The notes below the pieces were generated by a model. It worked only from the letters and a program-made list of their open reading frames with translations, had not been told where the DNA came from and made no database searches. Source: an uncultured Actinomycetes bacterium (GTDB lineage: Bacteria > Actinomycetota > Acidimicrobiia > IMCC26256 > BP-133). Taken from it: DNA of 64,000 nt. The stretch is taken from contig CAWBJP010000003.1 of NCBI GenBank assembly GCA_963789165.1, forward strand, positions 518,625 through 582,624, written 5' to 3'. Position 1 is the stretch's first letter; every line of letters starts with the position of its first letter. A program made the translations under genes and the position numbers. This document shows positions 9,445-26,667 of the stretch, piece by piece.

Positions 9445-9445
9445 A

Positions 9446-10942: not shown

Positions 10943-10958
10943 TCCGGTCCTCCTCCCG

Positions 10959-12329
10959 TCACCCCCGCGGCTTGTTGCGCCGCTCGAACGCCTTCATCAG
11001 CCCAGCGACGTCCATGATGCCGTAGCCATAGTCGTAGTCGTACCCGCCGCCGTTGCGATCGTCGGCGGTCCGCTGCAGCAACGTCCGCACCTGCCCGGGG
11101 CTGAGGGTCCGGGGCGGGAACAGGGTACGGATGGCGGCCACCACCCCGGCGGCCACGGGACAGGCCGCCGACGTTCCCGAGTCCGGCTTCCCGGGAAACG
11201 CCTCCGACCCGGTGAAGTGGGTGTAGGTGCACACGTCCGGCTTGCGCTGGTCCAGCCGCCCGGGACCCTGCGACGAGTAGCCCACCCGCTCGCCGGTGAC
11301 GTCGACGCCGCCAACGGAGAGCACCCCCGGATGCGAGTTGGCGCCGCCGATGGGACGGTCGGGGTACTCACAGCGCCCGTCGGGGCAGTCCCGCCCGCAG
11401 TTCCCGGCGGCGAAGACAATGTCGGCCCCCGCCGCCTCGAGGCTCGAGACGATGACGTTGAACGGGTGGGCCCGGCTGTCCGAGTAGTTCCCCGGGGCGC
11501 CCGGCGGGAAATCCCACCCCGGCGAGAAGGACCCCCAGCTGTTGGTCACCACCAGGGCCCGGCCCTCCTCGGGCATGGCGTCGAGGACGGCCCGGAGGTG
11601 GGCATAGGCCGCCACGGCGTCAGAGAGGAGCCCCTCCATAGCGTTCGCCCCCTGGCGCCCGGAGAGCAGCACGGCCATGTCGAGCACGGTCGCCTCGGGG
11701 GCGGCGATCAAAGCGTCGAAGCCACACATCGTCCCGTGGTCGACCTTGTGGGCCCCCGGCGTCGTTCCGACTCCGCTCGGGGTCCAGCTGCGGGCGGCGT
11801 CGAAAGCGAAACTCCGGCCAAGGTGGGCTTCGACGTGGGCCACGTTGACCCCCGAGTCGACTACCGCTAGGGCCACCCCCGCGCCGGTGAAACCAGCCCC
11901 GTGCAGCTCCGAGAGGTGGAGCTCGCCGGCCACGTCGTGCCAGTCCCCCACCGCCGGGCTGTCGCCGCAGGTGGGACACGACCCGATGGTGGGGTCGGCG
12001 AAGATCCCGACGATGTCAGGCCGGGAGCCGCTGAGCAGGGCCAGGCGACTAGCGAGGTTGTCGTCGGCGATCTCGCCCCGCACCAGAACGCCCGCTTCCT
12101 GTGGCTCGAAGGAGAAGGTCAGCTCCTGTTCCAAGGACAGCGGATCGCCACGCGGGTCCACGGGCCGGGGCCGGGGGACGGGCACCGGGGGATAGCCCGG
12201 GTCGATCCGGAACCCCGGCAGGTCCCCGGCGACGGCCTCCGGGCCGGGCGGCGCCACCGCTCCCCTCGTCGCCCGCACGGCGGCCTCGACGACGTCGGGT
12301 GCCGGTCGCATCTGAATGAGGACTCGCAT
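10959..12329 (-). CDS. S8-family (subtilisin-like) serine peptidase without a recognisable signal peptide
   Basis: Catalytic triad contexts: LAVVDSGVN (Asp), DHGTMCG (His), SGTSAACPVAAGVVAAI (Ser). ATG 12329 follows gaggggg. The N-terminus is not hydrophobic. Confidence 0.9.
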   Translation of the reverse strand: MRVLIQMRPAPDVVEAAVRATRGAVAPPGPEAVAGDLPGFRIDPGYPPVPVPRPRPVDPRGDPLSLEQELTFSFEPQEAGVLVRGEIADDNLASRLALLSGSRPDIVGIFADPTIGSCPTCGDSPAVGDWHDVAGELHLSELHGAGFTGAGVALAVVDSGVNVAHVEAHLGRSFAFDAARSWTPSGVGTTPGAHKVDHGTMCGFDALIAAPEATVLDMAVLLSGRQGANAMEGLLSDAVAAYAHLRAVLDAMPEEGRALVVTNSWGSFSPGWDFPPGAPGNYSDSRAHPFNVIVSSLEAAGADIVFAAGNCGRDCPDGRCEYPDRPIGGANSHPGVLSVGGVDVTGERVGYSSQGPGRLDQRKPDVCTYTHFTGSEAFPGKPDSGTSAACPVAAGVVAAIRTLFPPRTLSPGQVRTLLQRTADDRNGGGYDYDYGYGIMDVAGLMKAFERRNKPRG

Positions 12330-12589
12330 CTGGACCCCCTCGTGGCTGGCTCGGGACGAATCCCGCCCCCGGTGTTCCACCTGGAGGAGCGGCGCACTGC
12401 GCCGACCTCGCGGCCTCTAAATCCATACTACTTTTTCGAAGTTCTAGGAAGTATCGTGCTTGTGACGTACGGAACGCCGGCTTCGACACACTCGATACGG
12501 CTTGCCCGTCAATGAAGTACCGCCTTGCAGGGGCGAGGGTGACCCGGGAGCATTGCGACAGCGTGGATCGCTGACCCTTGGAGCGTGTC

Positions 12590-13627
12590 ATGGGCGGCAT
12601 CTTCATCAACTACAGGCGTAACGACTCCGAGTACATCGCGGGCCGGCTCCGAAACGACCTCTCCCGGCGGTTCGGCACCGATTTCCTGATTTTCCGCGAC
12701 GTCGACTCCTTGGCGCTCGGACGCTTCGCGGAGGAGATCGACCAGGCGGTCCGGTCCTGCGACGTGATGGTCGTGGTGATCGGTGACGGTTGGCTCGATG
12801 CCCGCGATGCCTCGGGCAAAAAGCGCCTGGACCAGCCCGACGACTGGGTCCGGCAGGAGATCGCCGCCGGCCTTAGACAGAAGAAGATTCTGGTCCCGGT
12901 ACTGGTCGAGAACGCCCGCCTGCCTTCGGCCCACGAGCTACCGCTGGAGATAGCGGAGCTGGTCGACCAGCAGGCCGTGGAGCTTCCCGACTCCCGGTGG
13001 GATTACGAGGTGGAACAACTGGTCGGAAAGCTGGAGCGGTCGCTCCGGTCGAGAAACCTCTTGCCCTCGGATCAACAGCAGGAATTGCCGGCTCCACCCC
13101 TGCGGGATTCCACCAGGAGGTCTGGGCCCAAATGGGCCTTGGCAATCATCCCCGTCGTTCTTGCCGCCGGTGTGTTCGCCATAGTCCGCTCGAGCGGCTC
13201 CGGCTCGGAGTGCACACGCGACCGAACTCCGGCGCCAGGGCGGACGACTGTTGCCTCCCGTCAGACGGACCGGTCATATACCGGCCCATGGTCGGTGACC
13301 TGCGGTCCCCTCACGCTCACCATCGAGAAGATCGAAACCTCCGCCAGCGCCACCCGGGTTCATGCCCGGGTGGACAACGAGACGGACGACACCCTGATCC
13401 TTTCCGCCAGTCAGTTCAACATGGTCGATGACAACGGACACAGCTATCGAGCGAATCCGTTCTCGAGCGAATGGCCCAAAGACATTCCCCCCGGTGTGCT
13501 CCGCGGGATCGTCGATGTCGTGGAGCCGCTCCGGCCGGAGGCGACAAGTATCAGCGCGGGGTGGGGCACCGTGTTCGGGACCTTCGCGGTCGACCAGATC
13601 TTCGTCGAGGGCATCGGGCTGCGGTAG
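12590..13627 (+). CDS. Membrane-anchored TIR-domain protein with a C-terminal DUF4352-like beta-sandwich
   Basis: N-terminus MGGIFINYRRNDSEYIAGRL...VMVVVIGDGWL...DDWVRQEIAAGL (TIR_2-type motifs including the conserved Glu). TM helix WALAIIPVVLAAGVFAIV. C-terminal LTIEKIETSASATRVHARVDNETDDTLILSASQFNMVDDNGHSY. Confidence 0.85.
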   Translation: MGGIFINYRRNDSEYIAGRLRNDLSRRFGTDFLIFRDVDSLALGRFAEEIDQAVRSCDVMVVVIGDGWLDARDASGKKRLDQPDDWVRQEIAAGLRQKKILVPVLVENARLPSAHELPLEIAELVDQQAVELPDSRWDYEVEQLVGKLERSLRSRNLLPSDQQQELPAPPLRDSTRRSGPKWALAIIPVVLAAGVFAIVRSSGSGSECTRDRTPAPGRTTVASRQTDRSYTGPWSVTCGPLTLTIEKIETSASATRVHARVDNETDDTLILSASQFNMVDDNGHSYRANPFSSEWPKDIPPGVLRGIVDVVEPLRPEATSISAGWGTVFGTFAVDQIFVEGIGLR

Positions 13628-13636
13628 GCGACCGGA

Positions 13637-14173
13637 GTGATCATCGTGCATGCGGGCAATCGAATCGATCCGCCGGGAAGAGTCCCGCCCCGCTTTCCCG
13701 CCCATCGGGAACGGGCGGTCGGGGCCAGGATGGTGGAGCTACTCCAGATTCTCGAGCCCGCAGGCATTGTCAGCGCGGCGGCCGCCGGTGCCGACCTCCT
13801 GTTGGCCGAAGCGGCTCTGGATCGGGCGGTACCCCTCCACGTCGTCCTCCCCTGCCCTCGAGCCCGCTTCCAGGAGGTGTCGGTCGCGGATCAAGGCCCG
13901 CGTTGGGTTCTCGCCTTCGAGCGGGTCCTGAACCATGTCGCCCAAGACACCCGGTCCTCGTTGGAGGAGTTGACGCTCGAGCCGGACGACGCCGGCTTCC
14001 GCATGGCCAACCAGGTGCTGCTGGATCGGGCGGTCAACCTCGGCGCCGACCGGGTACTGGCCGTGGCCGTCCGCCCGAGACAGAGGGAGTCCACGCCGAG
14101 CGTGACCGATGACTTCGTCGACCGCGCCGAGGCGGCCGGATTCTTCGTACTGGAGATCGATCCCGGGCACTGA
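13637..14173 (+). CDS. SLOG/LOG-like Rossmannoid domain protein (tentative)
   Basis: HAGNRIDPPGRVPPRFP...IVSAAAAGADLLLAEAALDRAVPLHVVLPCPRARFQEVSV resembles the N-terminal module of DUF4071/TRAFs-binding-type proteins. The gene starts 10 nt after the TIR stop and ends 40 nt before the CHAT gene. The start could be GTG 13637 or GTG 13646. Confidence 0.5.
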   Translation: MIIVHAGNRIDPPGRVPPRFPAHRERAVGARMVELLQILEPAGIVSAAAAGADLLLAEAALDRAVPLHVVLPCPRARFQEVSVADQGPRWVLAFERVLNHVAQDTRSSLEELTLEPDDAGFRMANQVLLDRAVNLGADRVLAVAVRPRQRESTPSVTDDFVDRAEAAGFFVLEIDPGH

Positions 14174-14213
14174 GCGCAAACGTCCAGCAGGTCAGCCGGA
14201 AGGGGGACCCAAG

Positions 14214-17200
14214 ATGGCGGAGTCCGAGAGCGGGCCCGGCGTCCAAGGCATCTCACTGGCAGGCGAAGGCGTCCGATTCGCCGCGGATCGTGGAGTCGCC
14301 GCCGACACCCGGTCGGACGGCGTCACCGTTGATCCCGTGGCCGCCACCATCAACGCCACCGATGGCTTGCGTATCGCTGAGGCCATCACCATTCGAAACC
14401 TCGAGGTGACCGGGGGCGGCGGTCGAGGTGACGCGCGTGAGGGTGCGCTGGTTGTGGATGTCGGGCGGGCAGAGCCGGGTGAACGACCCGTTGTTCTCGT
14501 CGAAGAGGACGGCCGCTACACCTGGGTCGTTCCCGCCCCAGGCCAGGAACGTCTCCGGTTGCCGGTGGAAGCCGCTCCTGGAAGCCGGGGGCTGGCCGGC
14601 TGGGCTGTTCGCCGCGTGCTTCGCGTGGTGGCCGTGAAGACCGTGGGCTGGGCGGTGCACGAGGCGACGCGGACGATCGTCGGCGGCTGGGACGAACGGC
14701 GCCACCCGCACCGCCTCCGCGCCTGGACGCCCGAGAACCACCGCGACCCCAATGCCCCACCTCCCGACATGCAAGCTCTGGGGGCCGGACCAGCTCTGCT
14801 TGTCATCCACGGGTTCATGGGGTCCGTCCACGGGTCCTTCGGCGACCTGGCGGCTGACGTAGTGCGCGGGTTCCACCGGGCGTATCGCGGCCGCACATTC
14901 GCCTTCGACCACCCGACCCTGGCGGTCTCCCCAAGGAAGAACGCCAAGTGGCTCGCCCAGCAGCTCAGCAGCGAGGGCGTTCCCCTGGTCCTCGATGTCG
15001 TCGCCCACTCGCGGGGCGGGCTCGTCGCCCGCGAGCTGGCTCAGCGACTGAGCGGAGATGGCGTCACGGTGCAGTCGATCACGTTCGTAGCCACCCCGAA
15101 TGACGGCACCCCTCTGGCCGACCCGAAGCGACCCGAGGGGCTTCTCGACGCTCTCACCAACCTGGCTGGCGCAGTGCCGGGCAGCGATGCCCTCCAACTC
15201 GTCTTGGAACTCTTGAAAGACATCGTGGTGGGGTCAGCCTTCACCGGCCTCAAGGGGCTGGTGGCCATGGAGCCGGGCGGGGCCTACCTCAGCGAGCTCA
15301 ATGCTCTACCCGTCCCGGAGGGCTTGGAGCTCCGGGCCATCGCGGCTGACTTCGAACCCCGCAGCGACGCCGGGATCGTCCGGACCGCACACGACCGTTT
15401 GATCGACGCCTACTTCGGTGGGCTTCGCAATGACCTCATCGTTCCCACGCTGAGCACGATCGTGACGAGCGGCGCCTTCGGTGTCCGTGCCGGCCACCGC
15501 CTCGTCCTCGACAGCAGCCGCGGGGTGGACCACAGCTCGTTCTGGACCAACCCCAGGGCCGTAGGCCAGCTCGCCGATTGGCTGCGCCCGGACTGGCGTG
15601 AGCGTCCCCCGGACGAGGTACCTGACGAGGAGACGGACCCCGGAGCCGAGATGGCGCTGCCCCCCGATCCCCGGAGGATCGAAGACGTGGCGGATGCCGT
15701 CAGCCGCCTCCCCGACAGGTCCCGCAAGGCGGTGGAGGAACTTGTCGGAGGCCCGATCAATGAACGGGCCCGCAGACCCACAGGCGACCGTCCAGCCGTG
15801 GTCGTCATCCCGGGAATCATGGGGACGCATCTGCGCCGCCGAGCCGGTGAGCTCATCTGGATCGATCCGTTGCGCCTGATGCGCGGCCACTTCAGTGACT
15901 TGTCCTTGGCACCGCCAGGGGCCGAGGTGGAGCCTGCGGGATTGAACCGCACGTATCTCCCCCTCATCACCCATCTCGCCGAAACGCGGGATGTCTACCT
16001 GGCTCCGTTCGACTGGCGCCTCGACATCCGGGACTCGGCGAACAAGCTGGCGAACCTGATCCAGGACCAGGTTCTCGTAGCCAACCCCACCCGGTCGGTG
16101 CATCTCGTAGCCCATTCGATGGGTGGCCTGGTGGGCCGGTCACTCACCTTCGTAGCTCCGGGCGTGTGGTCCGAAATGGGTGCTGAGCAGCGCGGAGACA
16201 GTGGTCGGCTGGTGATGCTGGGGACACCGAACCGAGGATCGTTTTCCATCGTGCTGACCCTCACGGGCGCAGAGATGATCTTGAAAGCCCTCGCCGCAGT
16301 CGACTTCCGTGCCGACACCAGACGGCTGCTCGAGGTCGTGGCCACCTTCCCGGGCGTGTATCAGATGCTTCCCTCCCTCAGCGTCGGGCCGGGCGACGAC
16401 CGGCACCGCGACCTGTTTACCGCCACCAACTGGGGCAGTCGGTCACCGGTTCAGCAGGCCCTTCTTTCCGATGCGGTCGAGTTCCACGCCGCCCTGGAAG
16501 AAGCGCACCGGAACCTGAGCGATACGGACCTCGCCCGCATGACGTCCGTCGCCGGGTACGGCGTCGCCACCCCTTATCGGCTGGAGATCACCGAACCCGG
16601 GTCGTTCAGCGTCGGTCGGGTGCTGAGGGGCGACGGCCGCGTGGCGATGGCTCTCAATCACCTCGACGGCGTGACCCGCTACTACTGCAAGGCATCCCAT
16701 GGTGCGCTGCCGTCGGCACCGGATGTCCTGGCCTCGCTCGGGGAACTGCTGGCCGGGAACCCTGGCCAGTTGGAGCGTGAGGCGCCCGAATCCCGAGGCG
16801 CCGAGGCCATGGACCGGCCGCCGATGATCCCCGTCGAACTCTTCGACTCGGTACCCACCGGCGGGACACGCTCCGGCGTCGCCGTCGTAGGCCGGCGCCA
16901 GGCGGAGGCGCGCCTGGTCGAGGCTCTCAGACCCTCGTTGGGCGGAGGCCTCGCCCCTCCCGAACGGGTGCAGGTCAAGGTCCGCGTGGTCCATGCCAGC
17001 CTCGAACAGGCCGATTTCCCGGTCGCTGTCGGTCATTACACGGGGGTCCCGGTCGACGGGTCGGAAGGGTTTCTCGACCGCAAGCTGTTGGGTGCCCTGC
17101 GCCAACGGCAGTACCTCGGGCAATATCCCGAACGGGCAGGGACGGCCGTGTACATCCCGGCCCCGCCTGGCCACCAGCCCCGGGGGGCGCTGATATTGGG

Positions 17201-19709
17201 CCTCGGGGAGTTCGGCACGTTGACGGGCGCCAACCTCTCCGAGGCAATGACCCAGGCTGTCATCGCCCTGGTCCTCGACCAGCGTGAGCGCGACCCGGAT
17301 CCGAGCGCTTCTGTGAGCATCGGCGTCTCATCGGTGCTCGTCGGGACACCCGGGCGTCACGGTCTGACCATCGAGAACGCCGTCACTTCACTGGTTGAGG
17401 GCGTGATCGAAGCCGTGGTCCGCCTTCGACGCCAGGACGAGCCCATTCCCCTGCGAACGGTCGAGCTCGAATTGATCGAGAGCTATCAGCAACCCGCGGA
17501 AGAGGCGGCGATGCTGCTGGCCGACCTGGACAGGCTGCTGGAGCCCGGCCTGCGGGACCAGGTCGACCTGCTGACCGTCGACCGCTTGGTCGCACGCGAG
17601 GGCCACCAGCCCGGCGCGCCGCCGGGACGTGAGTCGGGCGAGGCCTGGATCCGTGTGCTGGTAGGGCTCGAACGCGATGAGCAGGCGGCGGGGACTTCCT
17701 CGATCCGTCGTATGACCTTCTCGACGCTCGCCCGCGGGGCCCAGGCCAACCTGATTTCACACGACGTCGACCTGGAGAAGATTCGGGCCTACGTCGACGC
17801 CGCCGTCCGACGCCCAGAACAGGATCCGGCCATCAACCGGACGCTGTTCGAACTGCTCTTTCCGCCCCGGGCCAAGCTGGACCTCGACCGGTCGGAGCAC
17901 CTCCACCTCATCGTGGACGACGAGACGGCCCAGCTGCCGTGGGAGCTCCTGGCGGCGGCAGCCGTCGGTCGCGATGTTGCGCCTCTCGCCCTGCGGGCGG
18001 GCATGCTGCGGCAACTTCAGAGCCCGTCGCTCACGCGCTACCGAACAGGCTCTCCCCGGGGCCTGACGGCTCTGTTCGTCGGAGATCCGCCCACCAGCTA
18101 CCCCCGCCTGCCCAACGCCAGAGAAGAGGCTGAACGCTTGGCGACACTGTTTGAAGGGCGACGCTGGGAGGTGGAACGCCGCATCTACGGGGACGACCAC
18201 ACCGGCGACGCCGACGAGTGGATGGACGTCCTGAACGCCCTCCACCAGCGGGACTACCGCGTGGTGCACATCGCGGCCCACGGCGTGTTCGATGAGGACT
18301 GGCGGCGCAGCGGCGTCGCCATCGGGCCCCTCCCCGAGCACCGCCTGACCGCCCTCGAGTTCGAGGCCATGAGCTCCACCCCTGACCTCGTCTTCCTGAA
18401 TTGCTGCCATCTCGGCCGCCTGGGTTGGTTGCTCGATCAGGCCAAGGAGCCCGACGCCCGGGCCCTCGAGCGGCCACACCGGGTCGCCGGCACGGTCGCC
18501 CAGCAACTCCTCCGCAACGGGGTCGGGGCGGTGGTGGTAGCGGGTTGGGCCGTCGACGACTTCGCCGCCGCCGCCTTTGCCTCTGAGCTCTACGAATCGA
18601 TGCTCGGCGGCTATCCCTTCGGCGAGGCGGTGCGCAAGGCCCGCATCGCCGCTCACAAAGCCGACGATGGCCGTTCAAACACGTGGGGGGCGTACCAGTG
18701 TTACGGCGACCCGGACTTCGAGATGTTGGCCCGGGACGTCCCGCCCACGACGCGGCCCGCACCCGTGAGCGCGGCGCAGCTGGCCCGAGACCTGCGACTG
18801 GCCGCCATCCGGGCCAGTGAAGCGACAACGGTCGAGCACACCAGGCAGGTGGCGAGAGAGGTCAACGGGCTGCGGGTGGCCGGGGGGGACCTGGTCAACG
18901 ACGGCCGGGTGCTGGAAGAGCTGGGTGACGCCTTCAGCGAGCTCGGTCACTATGAGCAGGCCGTGGAGGCCTATGAGCAGGCCCTGCGCGAGGAGAAGGG
19001 CGAGGTCCGGATCAGGACGGCCGAACAGCTCGCGAACCTGAAGGCCCGCCTCGCGGTCAACCTGGCCCGAAAGCCGGACGGGTCCGCGGATGCCCGCCGG
19101 CTTTTTGCCGAGGCCAGCTCGATGCTCGACCTTCTCGACCGTCTCGCCGGGAACACGGCCGAACGCCACGCCTTGCGAGGCAGCCTGGAGAAGAAGCGGG
19201 CCACCACCGTGGAAGGCGAGCAACGCGCCAAAGCCCTCATCACGGCCCGCGCCGCGTACCTGACGGCCCGTCAGCTCAGCTCGCCTGACCGCCACGCGTG
19301 GCTGGTCCCGTACCACACCAACCTCTGGCTGCAGCTCGTCATCCTGACCAGCGAATCCGCTGCCCTCGCGGAAGAAGAATCAGGCTGGCTGGATGCGCTC
19401 CACCACCAGGTCGCCGAGCAAGCGAGCACTCCGTCCAACTATTGGGAGCTGGCGGCACTGGCCGACACGCTGCTGACCTATCTCCTGGCCGACCGGCCCA
19501 CCACTCGAGGTTCGGTGTCCGCCGAAGAGGTGAAGACGAGCTATCTGAAGGCCTTCGAGCTTCGTTCCACCGTGCGCCAACGCGATTCTGCCCTCACCCA
19601 CCTTCACGATCTCAGCCTGCTCGTGCCGTTCGAGAGAGCGCAGCCGTACGTCACCCTGTTGGAAAGCCTGAGAAGGGTCTTCCCCGATGAGGAAGGTGCC
19701 GGGCGATGA
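14214..19709 (+). CDS. 1831-aa multi-effector protein: two alpha/beta-hydrolase (lipase/PGAP1/LCAT-like) modules + CHAT caspase-like protease + C-terminal helical-repeat (TPR/DUF4071-like) region
   Basis: ATG 14214 follows ggaaggggga. Hydrolase 1: LLVIHGFMGS...LDVVAHSRGGLVAREL. Hydrolase 2: VVVIPGIMGTHL...VHLVAHSMGGLVGRSL. CHAT dyad: YRVVHIAAHGVF ... DLVFLNCCHLG. C-terminus contains LGDAFSELGHYEQAVEAYEQALRE and further helices. Confidence 0.9.
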   Translation: MAESESGPGVQGISLAGEGVRFAADRGVAADTRSDGVTVDPVAATINATDGLRIAEAITIRNLEVTGGGGRGDAREGALVVDVGRAEPGERPVVLVEEDGRYTWVVPAPGQERLRLPVEAAPGSRGLAGWAVRRVLRVVAVKTVGWAVHEATRTIVGGWDERRHPHRLRAWTPENHRDPNAPPPDMQALGAGPALLVIHGFMGSVHGSFGDLAADVVRGFHRAYRGRTFAFDHPTLAVSPRKNAKWLAQQLSSEGVPLVLDVVAHSRGGLVARELAQRLSGDGVTVQSITFVATPNDGTPLADPKRPEGLLDALTNLAGAVPGSDALQLVLELLKDIVVGSAFTGLKGLVAMEPGGAYLSELNALPVPEGLELRAIAADFEPRSDAGIVRTAHDRLIDAYFGGLRNDLIVPTLSTIVTSGAFGVRAGHRLVLDSSRGVDHSSFWTNPRAVGQLADWLRPDWRERPPDEVPDEETDPGAEMALPPDPRRIEDVADAVSRLPDRSRKAVEELVGGPINERARRPTGDRPAVVVIPGIMGTHLRRRAGELIWIDPLRLMRGHFSDLSLAPPGAEVEPAGLNRTYLPLITHLAETRDVYLAPFDWRLDIRDSANKLANLIQDQVLVANPTRSVHLVAHSMGGLVGRSLTFVAPGVWSEMGAEQRGDSGRLVMLGTPNRGSFSIVLTLTGAEMILKALAAVDFRADTRRLLEVVATFPGVYQMLPSLSVGPGDDRHRDLFTATNWGSRSPVQQALLSDAVEFHAALEEAHRNLSDTDLARMTSVAGYGVATPYRLEITEPGSFSVGRVLRGDGRVAMALNHLDGVTRYYCKASHGALPSAPDVLASLGELLAGNPGQLEREAPESRGAEAMDRPPMIPVELFDSVPTGGTRSGVAVVGRRQAEARLVEALRPSLGGGLAPPERVQVKVRVVHASLEQADFPVAVGHYTGVPVDGSEGFLDRKLLGALRQRQYLGQYPERAGTAVYIPAPPGHQPRGALILGLGEFGTLTGANLSEAMTQAVIALVLDQRERDPDPSASVSIGVSSVLVGTPGRHGLTIENAVTSLVEGVIEAVVRLRRQDEPIPLRTVELELIESYQQPAEEAAMLLADLDRLLEPGLRDQVDLLTVDRLVAREGHQPGAPPGRESGEAWIRVLVGLERDEQAAGTSSIRRMTFSTLARGAQANLISHDVDLEKIRAYVDAAVRRPEQDPAINRTLFELLFPPRAKLDLDRSEHLHLIVDDETAQLPWELLAAAAVGRDVAPLALRAGMLRQLQSPSLTRYRTGSPRGLTALFVGDPPTSYPRLPNAREEAERLATLFEGRRWEVERRIYGDDHTGDADEWMDVLNALHQRDYRVVHIAAHGVFDEDWRRSGVAIGPLPEHRLTALEFEAMSSTPDLVFLNCCHLGRLGWLLDQAKEPDARALERPHRVAGTVAQQLLRNGVGAVVVAGWAVDDFAAAAFASELYESMLGGYPFGEAVRKARIAAHKADDGRSNTWGAYQCYGDPDFEMLARDVPPTTRPAPVSAAQLARDLRLAAIRASEATTVEHTRQVAREVNGLRVAGGDLVNDGRVLEELGDAFSELGHYEQAVEAYEQALREEKGEVRIRTAEQLANLKARLAVNLARKPDGSADARRLFAEASSMLDLLDRLAGNTAERHALRGSLEKKRATTVEGEQRAKALITARAAYLTARQLSSPDRHAWLVPYHTNLWLQLVILTSESAALAEEESGWLDALHHQVAEQASTPSNYWELAALADTLLTYLLADRPTTRGSVSAEEVKTSYLKAFELRSTVRQRDSALTHLHDLSLLVPFERAQPYVTLLESLRRVFPDEEGAGR

Positions 19710-20764
19710 CCATGCAGCTCTTCCTGAGCCACTCGACTCGTGACCGAACCATCGCCGAGGCGGTCAAGGTACTGGTTGAGGACCTGTTCGGGACGGACCG
19801 GGTTCAGGTGGAATTCTCTTCCGATCAGCAAGCTGGCGGCGGCATCCCGCCCGGCGCGCAGTGGCTCCCATGGATCACTGAGCGCATCACGCGAGCCGAC
19901 AAGACCTACGTGCTCATCACGCCGAACTCGACGAAGAAGCCCTGGGTCCTGTGGGAGTCGGGGGCGGCCGCCGGTGTCGCTCTGGCAACCCACAGATCGA
20001 GCCCCGTCGTCCCCATCACGTTCGGCATCGCAGACGCCGACATCCCGAGCCCTCTCCTGGCCAATCAGCGGGTGCGGGGTGACACCGATGAGGCCGACGG
20101 CATCACCCGGTTGCTCCAGGACCTCAACCTTGCCGTTGGTGCCCCACTGACCACCAAGGCCTTCGCTTCAACCATCGACGAGTGCCTCCCCGATTTCTTT
20201 GCCAAGATCAAGATGGCCCTCGGTCAATCCTCACCCGCAGAAAGCCTGCTCGCCTCGGTACCCCACAGCTTCTCCGCCGAAGCGCTGGGCGGCTTCTGGG
20301 TCACCTGCTACCAGTTCGCTTCGAGCCAGGGCCTGGGGTGCCATGCCGACATCGCGCAGCTCACCCCGGAATCGGATCGACGGGTGAGAGCCAGGAACTG
20401 CCCGCCTGAGCCCCGAACCGACGGTCACCGCACGCCGTTCCGGAACGAGATCGAGGCCGAGTTGGCCAACCGGCACCTCATCGGTTATTGGAAGAACGTC
20501 AGCGACACCCGGTACTTCGGGACAGTTCACCTCGCCGTCCTCCCTGGCGAGACCGTGATGGACGGCTACTACACCAGCTTCACAAGCGACGTCGAGGCCG
20601 GCACCGGGCACTGGAGGTGGGTCCTCCTCGACCCCGAGTCGCTTCCGGGTGTCGATCTCACCCGCATGGCGTTGCGGGAGCCAGCCGTGATCCACGAACT
20701 GCTTCTGGCGCACTCCAAGCACGCCGGGCCGATCAAGTTGGCCGATGTGGCGGAGGCCATCTAG
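19706..20764 (+). CDS. TIR-like domain protein with an uncharacterised ~180-aa C-terminal domain
   Basis: The ATG overlaps the CHAT stop (ATGA at 19706-19709). MQLFLSHSTRDRTIAEAVKVLVEDL...YVLITPNSTKKPWVLWESGAAAG (TIR-like beta-A motif and W..E glutamate). I do not recognise the C-terminal half. Confidence 0.7.
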   Translation: MTMQLFLSHSTRDRTIAEAVKVLVEDLFGTDRVQVEFSSDQQAGGGIPPGAQWLPWITERITRADKTYVLITPNSTKKPWVLWESGAAAGVALATHRSSPVVPITFGIADADIPSPLLANQRVRGDTDEADGITRLLQDLNLAVGAPLTTKAFASTIDECLPDFFAKIKMALGQSSPAESLLASVPHSFSAEALGGFWVTCYQFASSQGLGCHADIAQLTPESDRRVRARNCPPEPRTDGHRTPFRNEIEAELANRHLIGYWKNVSDTRYFGTVHLAVLPGETVMDGYYTSFTSDVEAGTGHWRWVLLDPESLPGVDLTRMALREPAVIHELLLAHSKHAGPIKLADVAEAI

Positions 20765-21154
20765 GTGGGAATCACCAGGCAGGAGGCCGGCGACGTCGTC
20801 AACCTCTACATCCAGGCGTGGGTCGGGCAGGATCCCGATCTGATCGTGACCATCTTCACCCCTTCGGCCACCTATCACGAGCGCGTGCTCGACACTCCGA
20901 TCCGAGAACGCGAAGGGATCCGGGCGTACTGGCAGGCGAAGGTCGTCGAGTCGCAACGCAACATCGAATGCGACCTGCTGAACCTGTATCTCGACGGGGC
21001 TACCGCCATTGTCGAATGGGAGGCCCGTTTCGACGACCTGGTTGCGAAGGAGCGGAAACGGATGCGAGAGGTGGCGATCCTCGTCTTCGAGGGCCAACTG
21101 ATCGCCAGCCTCCGCGAATACTGGTCCTCGGAGCGGATCGCCGACCTGTCCTAA
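20765..21154 (+). CDS. NTF2-like / SnoaL-like fold protein
   Basis: GTG start immediately after the TAG of the preceding gene. VVNLYIQAWVGQDPDLIVTIFTPSATYHE...IRAYWQ...YLDGATAIVEWEARF...VAILVFEGQLIASLREYW is typical of the SnoaL/NTF2 pattern. Confidence 0.7.
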   Translation: MGITRQEAGDVVNLYIQAWVGQDPDLIVTIFTPSATYHERVLDTPIREREGIRAYWQAKVVESQRNIECDLLNLYLDGATAIVEWEARFDDLVAKERKRMREVAILVFEGQLIASLREYWSSERIADLS

Positions 21155-21306
21155 CTCGTATACGCGAGCGGAACGACTTTCAAGTTTCCGTAGACATTAT
21201 GGCATTCTTCGCTAAAGTTAGGCGTAGTTGACGCTCTACCTCGAGCGGGCGCCGAGGGACGAAGGTGCGACGTGCATCCCCTCGTTCGAAAGCGAAGGGA
21301 GCAGCG

Positions 21307-22170
21307 ATGTCGCGCGGATGGTCAATCCATATCGGCCTCAACTCCGTCGATCCTGACAGTTACGAGGGTTGGGCGGGCCCGCTCTCGGCCTGCGAGTTCG
21401 ACGCTGGCGACATGGCCGTCCTTGCTGAAAGCCAGGGCTTTGAAACCAGGACGATCCTCACTCGCGAAGCCACCGCAATCAACGTCATCGGAGCACTCCA
21501 ACAGGCCGCGGCCGTACTTCAGGATGGCGACATTCTCTTCCTCTCCTACTCCGGGCATGGTGGCCAGGTCGACGACGCGAACGGCGACGAGAAGGACCTG
21601 CGGGATGAGACCTGGGTCCTCTATGACCGACAGCTTCTCGATGACGAGCTCTACGACCTGTGGAGCAGATTCCGTCCTGGTGTTCGGATCGTCGTCGTCT
21701 CCGACTCCTGCCACAGCGGGACGGTAGTGAGGGGGATTCCCGATTACCTCCAGGCCTCGGTCCTTCAGGCCCGCTACGGGGGGATGACGGTGGAGGATGT
21801 TGACCGAGGCACCAAGGCCATGCCCGAGAAGATCAGCAGGAGCGTCAACAACGCCCACCGCGACCTATACGACGGCATCCAGAGAGCCCTCAAGACGAGG
21901 GATGGGGCCGCAATAGGGGCCGGCGTGCTCCTCATCTCCGGATGCATGGACAACCAACTCTCAGCGGATGGGGAGCGCAACGGAAGGTTCACCGAAGAGC
22001 TTCTCCGGGTGTGGAACACCGGCAAGTTCGAAGGGTCGTACCGCTCCTTGCACAAGACAATCCTCATGGGCATGCCGCCAGACCAGTCCCCGAACCTTCT
22101 TCCCGTCGGTACTGCCAACCCGGAGTTCGAACAGCAACGACCCTTCAGTATCGAGCTCTTCCCACGGTGA
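21307..22170 (+). CDS. Caspase-family (peptidase C14, metacaspase-like) cysteine protease
   Basis: ATG 21307 follows gaaggga. His context ILFLSYSGHGGQV and Cys context IVVVSDSCHSGT. Confidence 0.9.
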   Translation: MSRGWSIHIGLNSVDPDSYEGWAGPLSACEFDAGDMAVLAESQGFETRTILTREATAINVIGALQQAAAVLQDGDILFLSYSGHGGQVDDANGDEKDLRDETWVLYDRQLLDDELYDLWSRFRPGVRIVVVSDSCHSGTVVRGIPDYLQASVLQARYGGMTVEDVDRGTKAMPEKISRSVNNAHRDLYDGIQRALKTRDGAAIGAGVLLISGCMDNQLSADGERNGRFTEELLRVWNTGKFEGSYRSLHKTILMGMPPDQSPNLLPVGTANPEFEQQRPFSIELFPR

Positions 22171-22709
22171 GCACCCCGACCATTCCAGAGGACGTCGAGC
22201 CGACCGAACGGATCGAGGTGTTCTTGTCCTACGCGCATGAGGACCAGGAGTTTCGCGGCCAGCTTGCCGCGCACCTCAGTCAATTAGAACAGAACGGCGA
22301 TATCAAAGCCTGGTCAGACCGTGAAATTGCGCCCGGTGCCAATTGGGATCGAGAAATTGACGTTCACGTGCTGACGGCGCACGTGATTCTTCCTCTGCTC
22401 AGCCGACACTTTATGGCGTCGCGTTATTGTTTCTCGGAAGAACTACGTATCGCAAAGAAGCGACACGAAGCCGAAGAAACTCGTCTAATTCCCATATTGA
22501 TTCGTCCAGTTGCCCTCGTCGGAGTGCTGATGCAGCTTCAGATGCTGCCCTCCTGTCCTGACGGAAGCGAACTACTCCCCGTGAGTGCATGGCCCGACGT
22601 CGACAACGCATGGACGCAGGTCACCGACCGAATAATCGAGGCGGTGGCCAGCGTGCGCAAGCAGCGGCAACAGAAATCTCCAAAGGTCTGGGGCAGCGGT
22701 TCGGGATAG
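22167..22709 (+). CDS. TIR-domain protein
   Basis: GTG 22167 overlaps the caspase stop (GTGA). IEVFLSYAHEDQEFRGQLAAHL...WSDREIAPGANWDREI...ILPLLSRHFMASRYCFSEELRIA (TIR_2 motifs including the conserved Glu). Confidence 0.85.
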   Translation: MSTPTIPEDVEPTERIEVFLSYAHEDQEFRGQLAAHLSQLEQNGDIKAWSDREIAPGANWDREIDVHVLTAHVILPLLSRHFMASRYCFSEELRIAKKRHEAEETRLIPILIRPVALVGVLMQLQMLPSCPDGSELLPVSAWPDVDNAWTQVTDRIIEAVASVRKQRQQKSPKVWGSGSG

Positions 22710-22716
22710 AGAGAGG

Positions 22717-23334
22717 TTGTTCGGCCGACAGGACCTTTTGGACGATCTTTGGTATCGCTACAAAGACCTGACTCAATCCAATATCCAAGTACTGGTCGGC
22801 TCTTCAGGGCTCGGTAAAAGCACCGTCGCTGCGCAGTACGCCTGGACACATCGTCCTGACTACGAAGTCGTGTGGTGGATCAACGCAAGCGACCCGACTC
22901 AACTCGAAGCCTCCTACGTTGCCCTCGCGGAAGCCCTGGGATCCGCGACACTGAGGGGCGATGCCGCCAAGGAGGTAGTGAAGGAACGACTCAAGGAAAC
23001 CGGAGCGCTTCTGATCTTCGACAACGCGCGGGACCCACGACACATTGAGTCGTTCCTCCCACACCAGCCTCGTAGCCATGTGCTCGTCACATCGCAGGGC
23101 GGTAATTGGCCGGAGCTTGGATACGTCACATCTTTTCAGGCCCTTACTCAGGCCGAGGTCGAGCACGTCCTGCGTGAGGCTGCAGATATGGACGACCAGG
23201 ATCTAGTCCCCGAGCTCGCCCGCCACCTTCAAGGCGACCCGTTGGCGGTAAAGACCGCTGTCGCCCGGCTGCGGTCCGGGGAGAGCGCATGGTCCTACCT
23301 TCGCAAGCTTCAGCAATGGGCAAAAGGGCAGTGA
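22717..23334 (+). CDS. NB-ARC-type STAND P-loop NTPase module (no sensor or winged-helix part in this frame)
   Basis: TTG 22717 follows gagagagg, 7 nt after the TIR stop. FGRQDLLDDL...VLVGSSGLGKSTVAAQYA (Walker A), ALLIFDNARD (Walker B), HVLVTSQ, GDPLAVKTAVARL. Confidence 0.85.
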   Translation: MFGRQDLLDDLWYRYKDLTQSNIQVLVGSSGLGKSTVAAQYAWTHRPDYEVVWWINASDPTQLEASYVALAEALGSATLRGDAAKEVVKERLKETGALLIFDNARDPRHIESFLPHQPRSHVLVTSQGGNWPELGYVTSFQALTQAEVEHVLREAADMDDQDLVPELARHLQGDPLAVKTAVARLRSGESAWSYLRKLQQWAKGQ

Positions 23335-26300
23335 CTTCTAGCGCCGGCGGCGTGACCGGTGGTTCGGTAACAACGGCAGCCGAGCTCGCTCTCGACGAGA
23401 TGAGCACCGATTCTGCCGAAGTCATGGAGTTGCTAAGCCTTCTCGCCTTCTTCGCCCCGGACAGCGACATCCCCGGGCTCGTCCTCCTTGACGGTGCCAC
23501 CGCGCTCGAAGCAGATGCATGCAAACCAATTTCCTCTCCGCTCGCTCTCAACGACGCGATGTCCACTCTCGTCGCATGGGGGCTGGCAGAAGTTGACGGT
23601 GTCAGCCTGGTCATCCATGAGCGGATCCAGATCGCCGTGCGGGCGCGCCTCGGCTCCGATCAACAGCGCCGAACCGCGGAAGCCGCGGGTCTCGTCATAG
23701 CGTCGACCTATCCAGACCATCCCGATGCCATTCGGAACTGGCCCAAGGCCGGGTTGCTGCTCTCGCATGCTCTCGGGCTCATCGATCACCTTGAACGGCT
23801 TCGAAGTAAATCGGAAGTCCTTCCCCGGTTGCTCGACCGAGTCGGCCTCCATTTTATGGGCCTCGGACGACTGCAGGATGCCCTCCGGCTTCTCGAGCAG
23901 GCACAAGCAACTGTGTTCCTGGTCCACGGCGCTGGAAGCGACCTCGATGCTTGCGTCCAGCGCCACCTGGGCACGGTCCTTCGGGAGGCGGGCCGGCTCA
24001 GAGAATCAGAGTTGTTACTCCAAAGAGCGCTGGCGAAGGACACAGATCGAGACGGGGCTGATTCTCCGTCCGTAGCATTGGACCTCCGAGAGCTGGGCCA
24101 GACACTGGCCCGCCACAAGGGCTATCTCGAAGCACGAAAGCATCTGGCCAAAGCGCTTCAGATCCACGAGACTTTCGAGCCCGACGGGTTCGAGGTCGCC
24201 GCCGATCTTGATGCGCTATTTGAGGTGTTCGCCCTCCGAGGCGACATCGCCGAAGCGCGCAGCGTTCTCGAACGGGCTTTGTCCATCCGCGAGAAGCTCT
24301 TCGGTCATGACGACGTCGACACAATCATGACTCGCGTTGCCTTGGAGGTATTTCGTGGACTCTTGGTCGAGGGTTGGTCGAACACCTCTGCCATCGAACG
24401 GTACGTAGCGCAATCGGAACAGACGTTCGGCCTATCTCACCCTCGAGTCGCGGAGGTCTACGAACTGGTGTCGGATGCGGCTGCGAACCGGCAGGATTGG
24501 GAAGCTGCGCAGACGTATCTCGAACGGTCTCTAGAGGTCAACAAGTCCGCATACGGTCGTACGCATCCGCGCATCATCAGCAACCTATTCCGGCTCTTCA
24601 GAACAGCCTTGGCTCTGGGGCAAATTCAACGGGCCGGGGCGTTAACTGAGGAAGCGATCGGCATCCTGAAAGAGGTGCGGCCAGAGGATCTTGAAGCGAC
24701 GATCGCCCAAGCTGACGTCGCCACCGCTCTTTCGCCGTTGTCAGAGCTGGACCCTTCGGCCCGTCCGGCAGCCCGTACCGGCCTGGAACGATCGCTTGAG
24801 ATGCTTCGGCATGAACTGCCCGCCGCGCGCACGACAGAGATCGATCTCCTAGAGGTGCTGGCCCAGCTGGCGGTCGACCAGGGTGAACGCAATCTGGAAA
24901 AGGATCTCTTGAGCGAGGCTCTGGAAATCGTCCGCTCGACAGATATGTCAGAGCTGGAGGAGGCTCGCCTGCTGAGCAAGATGGCCGCGGGCGAGGAATC
25001 GCCTGCCAAGGCACTCCTCTTATGGACACGGGTTCTCGAGGTGGAGCGTCGCGAGCTCGGCCCCGATCACTATCGCCTCTTTACCACGTACTCATCCTTG
25101 TGGCCTCTGCTCCTAACGCTGAACCGGGTGCACGAGGCCCGAAGCGCCCTCGAGGAGGGCATCCGGATCGCTGGAAAAACATTCGGGCCCGACCATTGGC
25201 TGCTCGAGCAGATGCACGAGGCGCAGTCAGTCCTCAGCGCCTACGGCGGCGACATGGCCTCTGCGGTGGACGCGAGGCGCAAGGCCTTGGCTGCGGCAGA
25301 GAGCAATCCCAATTCTGATCAGGCGACCCTGGTGGTGCGGTTGATGCAGCTGGCCGAGACGCTCCAAGTCATCGGTGGATGGGAAGAGGCGCTAGAGCTC
25401 CTCCATCGGGGCCTGGAGATCCAAAAGGATGCGAAGCTCGACGAAGGACTTCGAGGGACCCTGCATCTCCGGCTAGCCGATTCGCTCATCCACGAAGGCG
25501 ACTACTCAGCAGCCCTGGCCAGCCTCAAAGAAGCTGCTCGGGTCGTAGAGATTGGGGAGGCCCGCCAAGACGCGGTGGAAGAAGCTGGCGCCTTGAGTCC
25601 CGGTCGCGAACAGATCGTCGAGGGATGGTCCAATCTCGGGGACGCCCTGCTCGCCAGTGGCCAGCCCTCGCTGGCGATCGAGCGTTACCAACTCGGGTTG
25701 CAAGCGGCGGCCCTGACTGAGACGCCTCTCGATGATGCGCAACTTCATGTCCGGCTTGCAGTCTTGGCCGGTATTCATCAGCAGGACGACTCGGCGAAGA
25801 ATCATCTGGAAAGAGCGCTTAAATTCATTCAAGCGGCTCAAATGCCCGGACCTCTGTGGGGCCTTTTGATCTCTTGCTCACGGGTCATGGCTCTCACGGA
25901 GCCACCCCAGGCAATTTTGCGACTCATACGAGAACTGGTCAGGTCTAGCTCGGGAGCGATGATGGACTTTCGTGGCAAACTCACGGGGGGCGTGCCTGAT
26001 GGATGGTTTGCGAAGGAGTCCCTCACTTTCGTTGCACCAGACGGCCAGGCGAACGTGATCGCTTCGAGTGAGCCACTCGACGAAACGATCAGGTCTGAGG
26101 AGTATGCGCAAATTCAAGGCGATCTTCTGCAAAGCGAATTTCCGGAGTATGCCGAACTCTCTTTTGAACCCGCTCACGTCTTTGGCCGAGCCGGATTCGT
26201 CCGCTATTTCCGTTGGACTCCTCCAGATGGCGTCTCAGTAACCCAGATCCAGTTCTACCACGCCGATACTGGACGAGGCTTTACTGCCACAGCGACTACA

Positions 26301-26396
26301 CCGACGATTAACTTTGATTCGGTTGGCGGTCTACTTCGCCTCGTGCTGGATGCACTCGTCATCGGCGATGACGCCGCCGCCGTGAACGTCTCGTGA
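23289..26396 (+). CDS. Continuation of the STAND NTPase: winged-helix segment + long TPR array + C-terminal DUF1795/DcrB-like domain
   Basis: This frame overlaps the NB-ARC ORF by 46 nt. MELLSLLAFFAPDSDIPGLVLL is a typical NB-ARC WH segment. Many TPR_10/12-like repeats follow (LGTVLREAGRLRESELLLQRALA ...). The tail reads GVPDGWFAKESLTFVAPDGQANVIASSEPLDETIRSEEYAQIQGDLLQSEFPEYAEL. The true N-terminus probably lies in the previous ORF. Confidence 0.85.
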   Translation: MVLPSQASAMGKRAVTSSAGGVTGGSVTTAAELALDEMSTDSAEVMELLSLLAFFAPDSDIPGLVLLDGATALEADACKPISSPLALNDAMSTLVAWGLAEVDGVSLVIHERIQIAVRARLGSDQQRRTAEAAGLVIASTYPDHPDAIRNWPKAGLLLSHALGLIDHLERLRSKSEVLPRLLDRVGLHFMGLGRLQDALRLLEQAQATVFLVHGAGSDLDACVQRHLGTVLREAGRLRESELLLQRALAKDTDRDGADSPSVALDLRELGQTLARHKGYLEARKHLAKALQIHETFEPDGFEVAADLDALFEVFALRGDIAEARSVLERALSIREKLFGHDDVDTIMTRVALEVFRGLLVEGWSNTSAIERYVAQSEQTFGLSHPRVAEVYELVSDAAANRQDWEAAQTYLERSLEVNKSAYGRTHPRIISNLFRLFRTALALGQIQRAGALTEEAIGILKEVRPEDLEATIAQADVATALSPLSELDPSARPAARTGLERSLEMLRHELPAARTTEIDLLEVLAQLAVDQGERNLEKDLLSEALEIVRSTDMSELEEARLLSKMAAGEESPAKALLLWTRVLEVERRELGPDHYRLFTTYSSLWPLLLTLNRVHEARSALEEGIRIAGKTFGPDHWLLEQMHEAQSVLSAYGGDMASAVDARRKALAAAESNPNSDQATLVVRLMQLAETLQVIGGWEEALELLHRGLEIQKDAKLDEGLRGTLHLRLADSLIHEGDYSAALASLKEAARVVEIGEARQDAVEEAGALSPGREQIVEGWSNLGDALLASGQPSLAIERYQLGLQAAALTETPLDDAQLHVRLAVLAGIHQQDDSAKNHLERALKFIQAAQMPGPLWGLLISCSRVMALTEPPQAILRLIRELVRSSSGAMMDFRGKLTGGVPDGWFAKESLTFVAPDGQANVIASSEPLDETIRSEEYAQIQGDLLQSEFPEYAELSFEPAHVFGRAGFVRYFRWTPPDGVSVTQIQFYHADTGRGFTATATTPTINFDSVGGLLRLVLDALVIGDDAAAVNVS

Positions 26397-26421: not shown

Positions 26422-26471
26422 CCGTGGGCGATACTGGTTTCGAACCAGTGGCCTCTGCCGTGTGAAGGCAG
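26422..26471. repeat. Distal att-type direct repeat: 50-bp copy of the 3' part of tRNA-Val
   Basis: ccgtgggcgatactggtttcgaaccagtggcctctgccgtgtgaaggcag is identical to 38450..38499. It lacks the 5' half of the tRNA. Confidence 0.85.
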
Positions 26472-26667
26472 ATCGGAGCTTCGCCCCGTCTGCCCTCACC
26501 TCTTGAAAGGGCCGGTCAGGCGGCATTTCGTGTGACCGGCAGTGTCCACCATGACCGGTGGTTTTCGGTCCTTCCGCGGGGCATCCGCGGGGCGTCGGGG
26601 GATCACTCCCGGGATCAGTGGGAGTCGGCGCATCGACCCGCTTCGATGACGACTAGGCGGGTGGCGC

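Follow-up and report, generated by a model that had tools for sequence, protein, structure and literature searches.

The subject of this analysis is a gene cluster at positions 12590-26396 of a 64,000-nt stretch of DNA (hereafter the window) from an uncultured Actinomycetes bacterium (GenBank assembly GCA_963789165.1, contig CAWBJP010000003.1, positions 518,625 to 582,624). The window is high-GC actinobacterial DNA (~70% GC), and nine same-strand open reading frames (ORFs), g1 to g9, were called in the cluster (Table 1), including one, g3, that encodes a giant multi-enzyme protein. Gaps and overlaps between successive ORFs are 0-40 nt, except for a single gap of 152 nt between g5 and g6.

An earlier interpretation, made from the nucleotide letters alone (the sequence-only reading), had described this packing and assigned to the ORFs three TIR modules, a SLOG-like protein, lipase-like modules, a CHAT protease, an NTF2-like protein, a C14 caspase, an NB-ARC module and a tetratricopeptide repeat (TPR) array. 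These descriptions held up: the ORFs lie where it placed them, Pfam supports the domain calls (for SLOG the support comes from a structure model) and the motifs it quoted for the TIR, CHAT and caspase domains are present in the translations. Its count of nine genes with a split STAND module was not borne out, as g7, g8 and g9 are one frameshifted gene. Because single-chain homologues align collinearly across these three ORFs, the alignments indicate that the locus is seven ancestral genes, one of them disrupted, rather than nine. On the reading we favour, which is tentative, the region consists of two parts: a putative Thoeris-like system (12590-22170) and a separately acquired STAND gene (22167-26396).

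Table 1. Coordinates of the ORFs, giant-protein domains and neighbouring features of the cluster
Feature	Position	Strand	Description
g1	12590-13627	+	N-terminal TIR, one transmembrane helix, C-terminal beta-rich domain
g2	13637-14173	+	178-aa stand-alone SLOG-fold protein
g3 (the giant)	14214-19709	+	1,831 aa, multi-domain hydrolase/Macro-fold/CHAT/TPR-S
g3 hydrolase module 1 (DUF7379)	14796-15302	+	Nucleophile in AHS266RGG
g3 hydrolase module 2 (PGAP1/LCAT-like)	15786-16703	+	Nucleophile in AHS635MGG
g3 Macro-fold domain	16971-17483	+	AF2 model and Foldseek
g3 CHAT protease (caspase superfamily)	17838-18710	+	His1356/Cys1398 dyad
g3 TPR-S (tetratricopeptide repeats-sensor)	18951-19292	+	Pfam
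g4	19706-20764	+	TIR plus ~200-aa C-terminal domain of no known family
g5	20765-21154	+	SnoaL/NTF2-like
Intergenic gap	21155-21306	+	Sigma-70-like site and GGGAG Shine-Dalgarno before g6
g6	21307-22170	+	287-aa Peptidase_C14 caspase
g7	22167-22709	+	TIR piece
g8	22717-23334	+	NB-ARC/AAA_16 piece
g9	23289-26396	+	TPR piece with DcrB-like tail
g7+g8+g9 as a single gene	22167-26396	+	TIR-NB-ARC-(DUF7779)-TPR, two frameshifts
Frameshift 1 window (TIR to NB-ARC)	22685-22723	+	Beside GGGG run
Frameshift 2 window (NB-ARC to winged-helix and TPR)	23304-23364	+	Beside AAAA and GGG runs
50-bp copy of tRNA-Val 3' half	26422-26471	-	Perfect repeat of 38450-38499; distal attachment (att) site of 12-kb element
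12-kb element: LuxR-AAA_16 regulator	27812-30754
12-kb element: GMC oxidoreductase	31618-33348
12-kb element: HTH_17 excisionase-like gene	36131-36424
12-kb element: tyrosine integrase	36483-37622
12-kb element: HicB-like antitoxin	37850-38308

The giant protein and its partners in the cluster

The giant has the domain order N-terminal region, alpha/beta-hydrolase 1, alpha/beta-hydrolase 2, Macro-fold, CHAT and TPR-S. Pfam matches were obtained for DUF7379 (5.8e-51) in the first hydrolase, PGAP1 (7.4e-8) and LCAT (3.6e-5) in the second, CHAT (1.3e-32) and TPR-S (2e-7, i.e., 32 bits against a cut-off of 27.6). We found no mention of DUF7379 in the literature. The TPR-S and SLOG families were reportedly defined by Burroughs et al. 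in NAR in 2015.

The stretch between hydrolase 2 and CHAT has no Pfam match, and the sequence-only reading missed the domain that lies there. An AlphaFold (AF2) model of residues 870-1205, with a predicted local distance difference test score (pLDDT) of ~90 over its core, has a Macro-type fold. Foldseek matched this core to the N-domain of LAP (M17 aminopeptidase) and to macroH2A1.1 (1yd9, E 1.8e-6, TMt 0.64), with further matches to Af1521, MACROD2 and the macro domain of chikungunya virus (CHIKV) nsP3. One homologue of the giant (P0064) has a Pfam Peptidase_M17_N match.

The catalytic centres were examined in an alignment of 26 giants with identities to the window's giant down to 27%. The invariant residues are H199, G200, S266, D407 and H440 in hydrolase 1 (triad S266/D407/H440), the triad S635/D807/H829 in hydrolase 2, and H1356, G1357 and C1398 in CHAT, where the motifs are HIAAH1356G and NCC1398HLG. 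Taking the motifs and the model together, g3 is predicted to combine three catalytic modules with two potential ligand-binding modules (Macro-fold and TPR-S).

We detected 238 homologues of the giant, mostly full-length (1,800-2,200 aa), and at least 550 relatives among GTDB species representatives of many phyla. Relatives occur in Acidimicrobiia, Chitinophagaceae, Flavobacteriia, Nitrospira, Acidobacteriota, Burkholderiales, Thiotrichales, Desulfobacterota, Chloroflexota and Saccharothrix. In soil and aquatic phyla (Acidimicrobiia, Chitinophagaceae, Nitrospira, Acidobacteriota and Burkholderiales), giants are common. An Acidimicrobiia subclade of ~2,200-aa giants (L006, homologues P0020-P0029) has an extra N-terminal metallo-beta-lactamase-fold domain (Lactamase_B).

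The gene before the giant, g2, has no match in Pfam, PADLOC or NCBIfam, and an hmmsearch against PDB gave nothing useful. With sequence profiles silent, we placed it by structure: its AF2 model (pLDDT 96.3) has as its top Foldseek PDB matches YpsA (2nx2, E 5e-7, TMq 0.64), DprA, ShosA and LOG TM1055, all at probability 1.0, and sequence identity to the YpsA, DprA and LOG matches is 16% or less. According to the model, g2 has a SLOG fold, i.e., it is Rossmannoid with glycine-rich loops after strands 1 and 2. An exhaustive search (E <= 1e-3) put the size of its family at 3,891 cluster representatives. The motifs VHAGNRxD and AAGADL are invariant, as are residues G7, R9, D11, R19, G51 and D53, and TDDF is a further distinct motif. 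The true start of g2 is the GTG at 13637; the public gene call (147 aa, P0122) begins 31 codons late, missing 13637-13729 and thereby dropping the invariant VHAGNRxD.

Searched against viral structures, the g2 model hit phage proteins that share its fold (SLOG, DprA-like and DUF2493) with TM 0.65-0.7. Phages with such SLOG-fold proteins include Streptomyces phage Mildred21 and mycobacteriophages, and these proteins could act on the same ligands.

The TIR domains of g1, g4 and g7 all match Pfam TIR_2 (9.5e-12, 1.1e-9 and 2.3e-18, respectively), and their Glu90, Glu84 and Glu91 align with the catalytic Glu of type I, III and IV Thoeris ThsB. PADLOC's ThsB model PDLC00420 matches g7 at 1e-35, its TIR-TM and ThsB models match g4 weakly, and the NCBIfam model Thoeris_type3_ThcB4 gives g1 27 bits against a cut-off of 220. 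In g1, the transmembrane helix spans residues 182-199 and the C-terminal beta-rich domain has only a weak DUF5643/DUF4352 match. TIRs of the g1 type (38-43% identity) occur in other giant or caspase loci (L092, L062 and L054), and in the closest relative locus (L001) a decayed g1 remnant upstream of the SLOG gene (1308-1642) retains only residues 1-25 and 284-345. The start of g4 overlaps the stop of g3 (ATGA), and a TIR gene also abuts or overlaps the giant's stop in L001, L008 and L037.

Other parts of the cluster are less widely shared. The ~200-aa C-terminal domain of g4 has no Pfam match and no homologue in other giant loci. The g5 protein matches Pfam SnoaL_2 (1.5e-12) and has no homologue in any other giant locus, and g5 is probably an accessory or hitch-hiker gene rather than a conserved part of the system. 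The sequence-only reading called the tail of g9 DUF1795-like, a label that was not confirmed: the tail does match DcrB, but at 19.7 bits (E 9.6e-4), below the cut-off of 27.2. All three were considered as conserved parts of the system and rejected, because none has homologues in any related locus.

The g6 protein is a caspase by its Pfam Peptidase_C14 match (1e-21) and its dyad His84/Cys135 (SGH84G, DSC135HSG), whereas its match to PADLOC's 'caspase' reaches only 4.3e-7. It consists of the C14 domain only, without a C-terminal ligand-binding domain. Both g6 and the CHAT domain of g3 have the His-Gly...Cys dyad and caspase-like family match of clan CD.

The sequence-only reading had placed g6 with the STAND ORFs in a second operon that begins after the 152-nt gap. 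The gap does contain the sole sigma-70-like site of the region (21191-21218). This is weak evidence for a promoter because one site was found where 1.5 are expected by chance, and a promoter and terminator scan of the region gave matches at chance level only. Gene neighbourhoods point to a different partner. The g6 caspase is 45% identical to one two genes upstream of a giant in Hydrogenophaga, though the giants share only 27-29%. A reciprocal metagenome scan found 206 relatives of g6; 80 loci were kept, and 40 of these were informative (at least 1.5 kb downstream). The gene after the g6 relative was a giant in 10 of the 40, another large C14 protein in 16 and a STAND gene in none. These adjacencies indicate that g6 belongs with the giant and not with the STAND gene, so we rejected the caspase as a STAND partner, and with it the proposed second operon.

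Gene neighbourhoods of the giant family

To see which genes accompany giants in other genomes, we used 81 unique giant loci, each taken with at most 10 kb of DNA on either side. Crude ORF calling mis-called genes in high-GC loci (e.g., the SLOG gene of L001), so domain counts were taken from six-frame hidden Markov model (HMM) scans. A TIR was found near the giant in 22 of the 81 loci (27%), a g2-type SLOG in 10 (12%) and a stand-alone g6-type caspase in 12 (15%). At least one of the three was present in 33/81 loci, and in 18/43 of those with at least 5 kb on both sides. Positions recur as well: a same-strand TIR starts within 1.5 kb downstream of the giant in 11 of 65 loci, and in 9 of 61 a same-strand caspase ends no more than 1.3 kb upstream of it. 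When Pfam families were ranked over two genes on each side, TIR_2 was top downstream and Peptidase_C14 top upstream, with TPR-S recurrent. Co-occurrence of TIR and SLOG-like genes with giant homologues, a check suggested by the sequence-only reading, was thus found, and it spans phyla.

The density of TIR ORFs in the giants' flanks is ~29 per Mb. TIR-based systems are present in at least 8% of genomes according to the 2025 Thoeris survey, and the density near giants is far above the level that this implies.

Individual loci resemble the window to varying degrees. The closest relative (L001, 73% identity) has the g1 remnant, SLOG, giant and a Patatin-TIR in place of g4. A locus with 52% identity has TIR-WD40, SLOG, an unknown gene and the giant, and it adjoins an integrase and a NACHT gene. 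The Hydrogenophaga locus has caspase, amidase, giant and TIR-TM.

The same modules also appear fused to each other or split apart. Proteins of ~600-760 aa combine the g2-type SLOG with TPR-S, and the genes for some of them immediately precede a caspase and giant. One protein (P0341) is a Patatin-SLOG fusion. TPR-S occurs in related loci as stand-alone or SLOG-fused genes. One locus (L089, 3013-9543) looks like a 'split' giant, with SLOG beside separate genes for Peptidase_C14 (409 aa), an LCAT/PGAP1 hydrolase (334 aa) and TPR-S (212 aa), plus three unknown small genes. Another (L174) has the order TIR, unknown gene, SLOG, unknown gene, TPR-S, and L173 has CHAT and an alpha/beta-hydrolase no more than 3 kb from SLOG. 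Because of these co-occurrences, fusions and fissions, SLOG, TPR-S, caspase/CHAT, alpha/beta-hydrolase and TIR appear to be one functional guild, with SLOG acting as either a receptor or a signal-processing enzyme.

Some g2-type SLOG genes have other company. In L090 (7849-9528), SLOG and the genes SLATT_1 and SLATT_3 form a divergent pairing that has no TIR within 9 kb, and this arrangement may be a SLOG-SLATT two-component system. In L172, L091 and L173 (~9001-16800 each), the SLOG neighbours are MDMPI_N, AlkZ-like, M20 peptidase, PhoH, YbeY and CNNM, a neighbourhood unlike a defence island.

The STAND gene and the adjacent integration site

Pfam finds NB-ARC/AAA_16 in g8 and TPR_12 in g9, and the GTG start of g7 overlaps the stop of g6. 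When g7, g8 and g9 are conceptually fused, 98% of the resulting length can be aligned, in collinear order, to single-chain TIR-NB-ARC-DUF7779-TPR proteins, the best being P0198 (31% identity). In tblastn searches, consecutive parts of single-chain homologues fall in frames 2, 3 and 2 across the three ORFs. The NCBIfam model FxSxx_TPR is divided in the same way, with positions 10-211 in g8 and 226-559 in g9 (137 and 124 bits against a cut-off of 300). The Walker A motif GSSGLGKS is present, and the two frameshifts break what would otherwise be a continuous TIR-STAND chain.

It is somewhat unlikely that the split is real biology, or else that an assembly artefact has interrupted an intact gene, with no pseudogene in either case. 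Separate expression would be helped by the GGAG-N5-ATG start of g9 at 23289, which is a good one, and by the translational coupling of g7 to g6; g8, however, would have to start at a TTG without spacing from a purine-rich tract, and all 22 relatives found of this gene are single chains. An artefact would be consistent with both frameshift windows lying beside homopolymer runs, which are typical spots for sequencing indels, and with the two shifts together returning to the original frame. Two errors within 620 bp would nevertheless be odd when the other long genes examined in the window are all intact (the 5.5-kb giant, a 1,249-aa SARP, a 980-aa LuxR and an 896-aa AceE). Because no other long window gene examined is interrupted, we favour a genuine pseudogene over a sequencing or assembly error.

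Composition also sets this gene apart. GC content at third codon positions (GC3) is 0.81-0.83 in g1-g5, 0.77 in g6 and 0.63-0.66 in the g7-g9 gene, and it is 0.85-0.95 in the flanks. The STAND gene is thus compositionally foreign to the rest of the cluster; it was probably acquired separately and is probably non-functional.

The cluster ends 25 nt from the 50-bp copy of the tRNA-Val 3' half, a remnant that ARAGORN calls as an odd 78-nt tRNA (26424-26501). The real tRNA-Val is at 38452-38524. The sequence-only reading saw in this remnant an att site and a hot spot for defence islands. The proximity stands, but the 50-bp repeats bound a neighbouring 12-kb integrated element (26472-38449) on the other side, and no third copy was found near 12.4 kb, at the left end of the cluster. 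We therefore rejected the idea of the cluster as an att-bounded genomic island, as the repeats and the integrase enclose the adjacent element. The cluster abuts an integration hot spot and is not delimited by it.

Two other features of the window were noted. On the minus strand at 4871-8620, 4 kb upstream of the cluster, is the gene for a SARP-type regulator of 1,249 aa with Trans_reg_C, BTAD, NB-ARC/nSTAND1 and TPR domains, and similar BTAD and nSTAND genes are near the SLOG genes of L091 and L173. GC content dips to 0.62-0.66 at 46000-48000, around tRNA-Leu(CAA) (47457-47540), which may be another small foreign insertion.

A possible signalling pathway and its relation to known systems

Judged by its sequence and by analogy with Thoeris, g1-g6 may be a pathway in which a nucleotide signal made by TIR proteins is sensed by a SLOG, TPR-S or Macro-fold module, releasing execution by CHAT, caspase and lipases. 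The g1 (membrane-anchored) and g4 TIRs, triggered by infection, would convert NAD+ to the signal. It would then be perceived by at least one of three candidate ligand modules: the stand-alone SLOG g2, the TPR-S of g3 and the Macro-fold of g3. Perception would switch on the CHAT protease of g3, which would free the giant's two serine-hydrolase (lipase/esterase-like) modules and/or process the caspase g6. Cellular proteins and lipids would be destroyed, giving abortive infection.

The intact catalytic centres of the TIRs, hydrolases and CHAT support this Thoeris-like pathway, as do the cross-phylum co-occurrence, the fusions and the overlapping stop/start codons. We hold it tentatively, as a reading that falls somewhat short of probable, because ~60% of giant loci have no TIR, SLOG or caspase within 10 kb in the DNA examined. 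For the same reason, TIR input is not obligatory for the giant family. Other observations also weigh against the pathway. Several giants are among metabolic genes (L003, L006 and L007), g2-type SLOG occurs without any TIR in L089 and L090, and stand-alone g2-type SLOG has a stable, apparently chromosomal context in L091, L172 and L173. The Macro-fold of g3 resembles the N-domain of M17 aminopeptidases at least as much as it does ADP-ribose-binding macro domains. Some partner TIRs are fused to patatin or WD40, which fits an effector or sensor role as well as that of signal-maker. Known defence genes (PADLOC) are only scattered among the giants' immediate neighbours, which is not decisive.

The flow could instead run the other way, with the giant as sensor and activator: its TPR-S or Macro-fold would detect an invader cue, and CHAT would cleave and activate NAD+-depleting TIRs and the caspase (and patatin elsewhere), with no diffusible TIR signal. 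We think this clearly unlikely. It would account for partner TIRs often being fused to effector or sensor modules (Patatin-TIR in L001, TIR-WD40 in L004 and TIR-TM in the window and L008) and for most giants lacking a TIR neighbour, and in the conflict systems described by Kaur et al. 2020, effector sets consist of caspase, alpha/beta-hydrolase and TIR. Yet in Thoeris effectors, validated or proposed, TIR products are perceived by modules of the SLOG, TPR-S and Macro types, and the SLOG-TPR-S and Patatin-SLOG fusions fit a ligand-gated logic. A narrower alternative concerns g2 alone, which might act on the signal enzymatically, as a LOG-type N-glycosidase would, by making it, trimming it or destroying it, and leave sensing to TPR-S or the Macro-fold. 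The family's invariant residues include several acidic and basic ones (R9, D11, R19 and D53), SLOG occurs without a TIR beside the SLATT pair (L090) and beside split caspase, hydrolase and TPR-S genes (L089), SLOG-TPR-S parallels ThsI (CMP hydrolase plus TPR), and Kaur et al. 2020 predicted SLOG and DRHyd as possible second-messenger generators. However, the Patatin-SLOG layout is that of SIR2-SLOG ThsA, whose SLOG is a receptor, and the best structural match is YpsA, for which no enzymatic activity is shown in the results used. We place an enzymatic g2 on the unlikely side.

It is very improbable that there is no single system here, i.e., that TIR, SLOG, CHAT and caspase genes form a chance mosaic in a variable region by tRNA-Val, or that the giant is non-immune (developmental cell death, or envelope or lipid turnover). 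Many giants are alone among housekeeping genes, composition is heterogeneous across the cluster, and the conserved partners do not include g5, the C-terminal domain of g4 or the STAND gene. Against this, these four module families are found together repeatedly in Actinomycetota, Acidobacteriota, Burkholderiales, Nitrospirota and others, often with overlapping stop/start codons and as fusions, and the TIR ORF density in the flanks far exceeds what the survey implies.

Going beyond the Thoeris-like pathway for this locus, the giant may represent a widespread, undescribed branch of TIR signalling. A single executioner polypeptide would read the signal through its Macro-fold and/or TPR-S, helped by the new SLOG family of ~3,900 clusters, and fire a CHAT-to-caspase cascade together with two lipases. 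We regard this broader proposal as possible but doubtful. If true, it would be a bacterial counterpart of eukaryotic TIR-to-protease/lipase-like death pathways, possibly with a new signal molecule.

The sequence-only reading could match the locus to no named system, and our searches agree. PADLOC has no match for the giant, the SLOG g2 or the STAND pieces. NCBIfam gave only matches far below cut-off for the locus, and the giant and SLOG-TPR-S homologues have no NCBIfam family at all. 'CHAT' has no occurrences in the searched part of the supplementary tables of the 2025 Thoeris survey, whose test systems came mostly from relatives of E. coli and B. subtilis. Literature searches for TPR-S with SLOG, and for CHAT with TIR, SLOG or defense, returned nothing relevant, so neither the giant nor this SLOG family had an entry in the sources searched, though a purely computational study may have mentioned the architecture before. 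By sequence and analogy, the locus looks like an undescribed Thoeris relative built on a giant effector.

In validated Thoeris systems, the ADP-ribose (ADPR) derivatives that TIRs make are read by SLOG in type I and by Macro in type II, while in type VIII cyclic ADPR (cADPR) is presumably read by a TPR domain; the type IV effector is a caspase-like protease, ThsE (bioRxiv 10.64898/2025.12.03.692087; 10.1101/2024.10.24.620036). As in types I-XI, at least one TIR with a catalytic Glu adjoins a candidate effector gene here, and the candidate ligand modules are of the SLOG, Macro and TPR types found on the effector side of types I, II and VIII. Protease and lipase outputs have precedents in ThsE and in a putative 'SLOG Patatin' effector. 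Unlike Thoeris, the presumed effector here is an 1,831-aa fusion of two alpha/beta-hydrolases, Macro-fold, CHAT and TPR-S; its SLOG is a separate 178-aa protein of a family without a Pfam model; there is an extra small caspase; and most giants have no TIR neighbour. The architecture of type IV ThsE includes an extra C-terminal domain (10.1101/2024.10.24.620036), whereas g6 has no C-terminal ligand-binding domain.

Conflict systems described by Kaur et al. 2020 have an obligatory pairing of alpha/beta-hydrolase and caspase and include TIR-AP-ATPase-TPR proteins, and caspase genes beside AP-ATPase-TPR genes have been described (Kaur, Burroughs, Iyer, Aravind 2020/2021). The window shares the pairing of a caspase-superfamily peptidase with an alpha/beta-hydrolase, and its g7-g9 gene has the TIR-NB-ARC-TPR architecture (FxsC/FxSxx_TPR-like), though far below the FxSxx_TPR cut-off. 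It differs in that a single chain carries both the hydrolase and the caspase modules along with Macro-fold and TPR-S, and no MoxR ATPase, vWA, VMAP or iSTAND core was found in the nine ORFs or the flanking genes examined. The g2 model superposes on YpsA, DprA and LOG, with glycine-rich loops in the same places, but its sequence is very distant from theirs, without a SLOG Pfam match and with its own motifs (VHAGNRxD, AAGADL and TDDF).

The analysis corrects the annotation in two places: what had been read as a 'split STAND' is one broken gene, and the start of g2 lies 31 codons before the one called automatically. If the Thoeris-like reading is true, the locus would be a new and unusually complex class of TIR (Thoeris-type) effector, in which a single regulated unit would combine protease, caspase and two lipase activities, and the large unannotated SLOG family would be a new handle on nucleotide signalling. 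A parallel for the proteolytic step is type III-B CRISPR, in which a SAVED-CHAT protease processes the caspase-like PCaspase. Here too a CHAT protease that may be ligand-gated has the gene for a small caspase-like protease nearby, which suggests a two-step proteolytic cascade. The window differs in having no CRISPR, SAVED or cyclic-oligoadenylate synthase, in a presumed input that is TIR-derived and in the fusion of CHAT to hydrolases. On the Thoeris-like reading, it would be a second, CRISPR-independent CHAT-to-caspase cascade.

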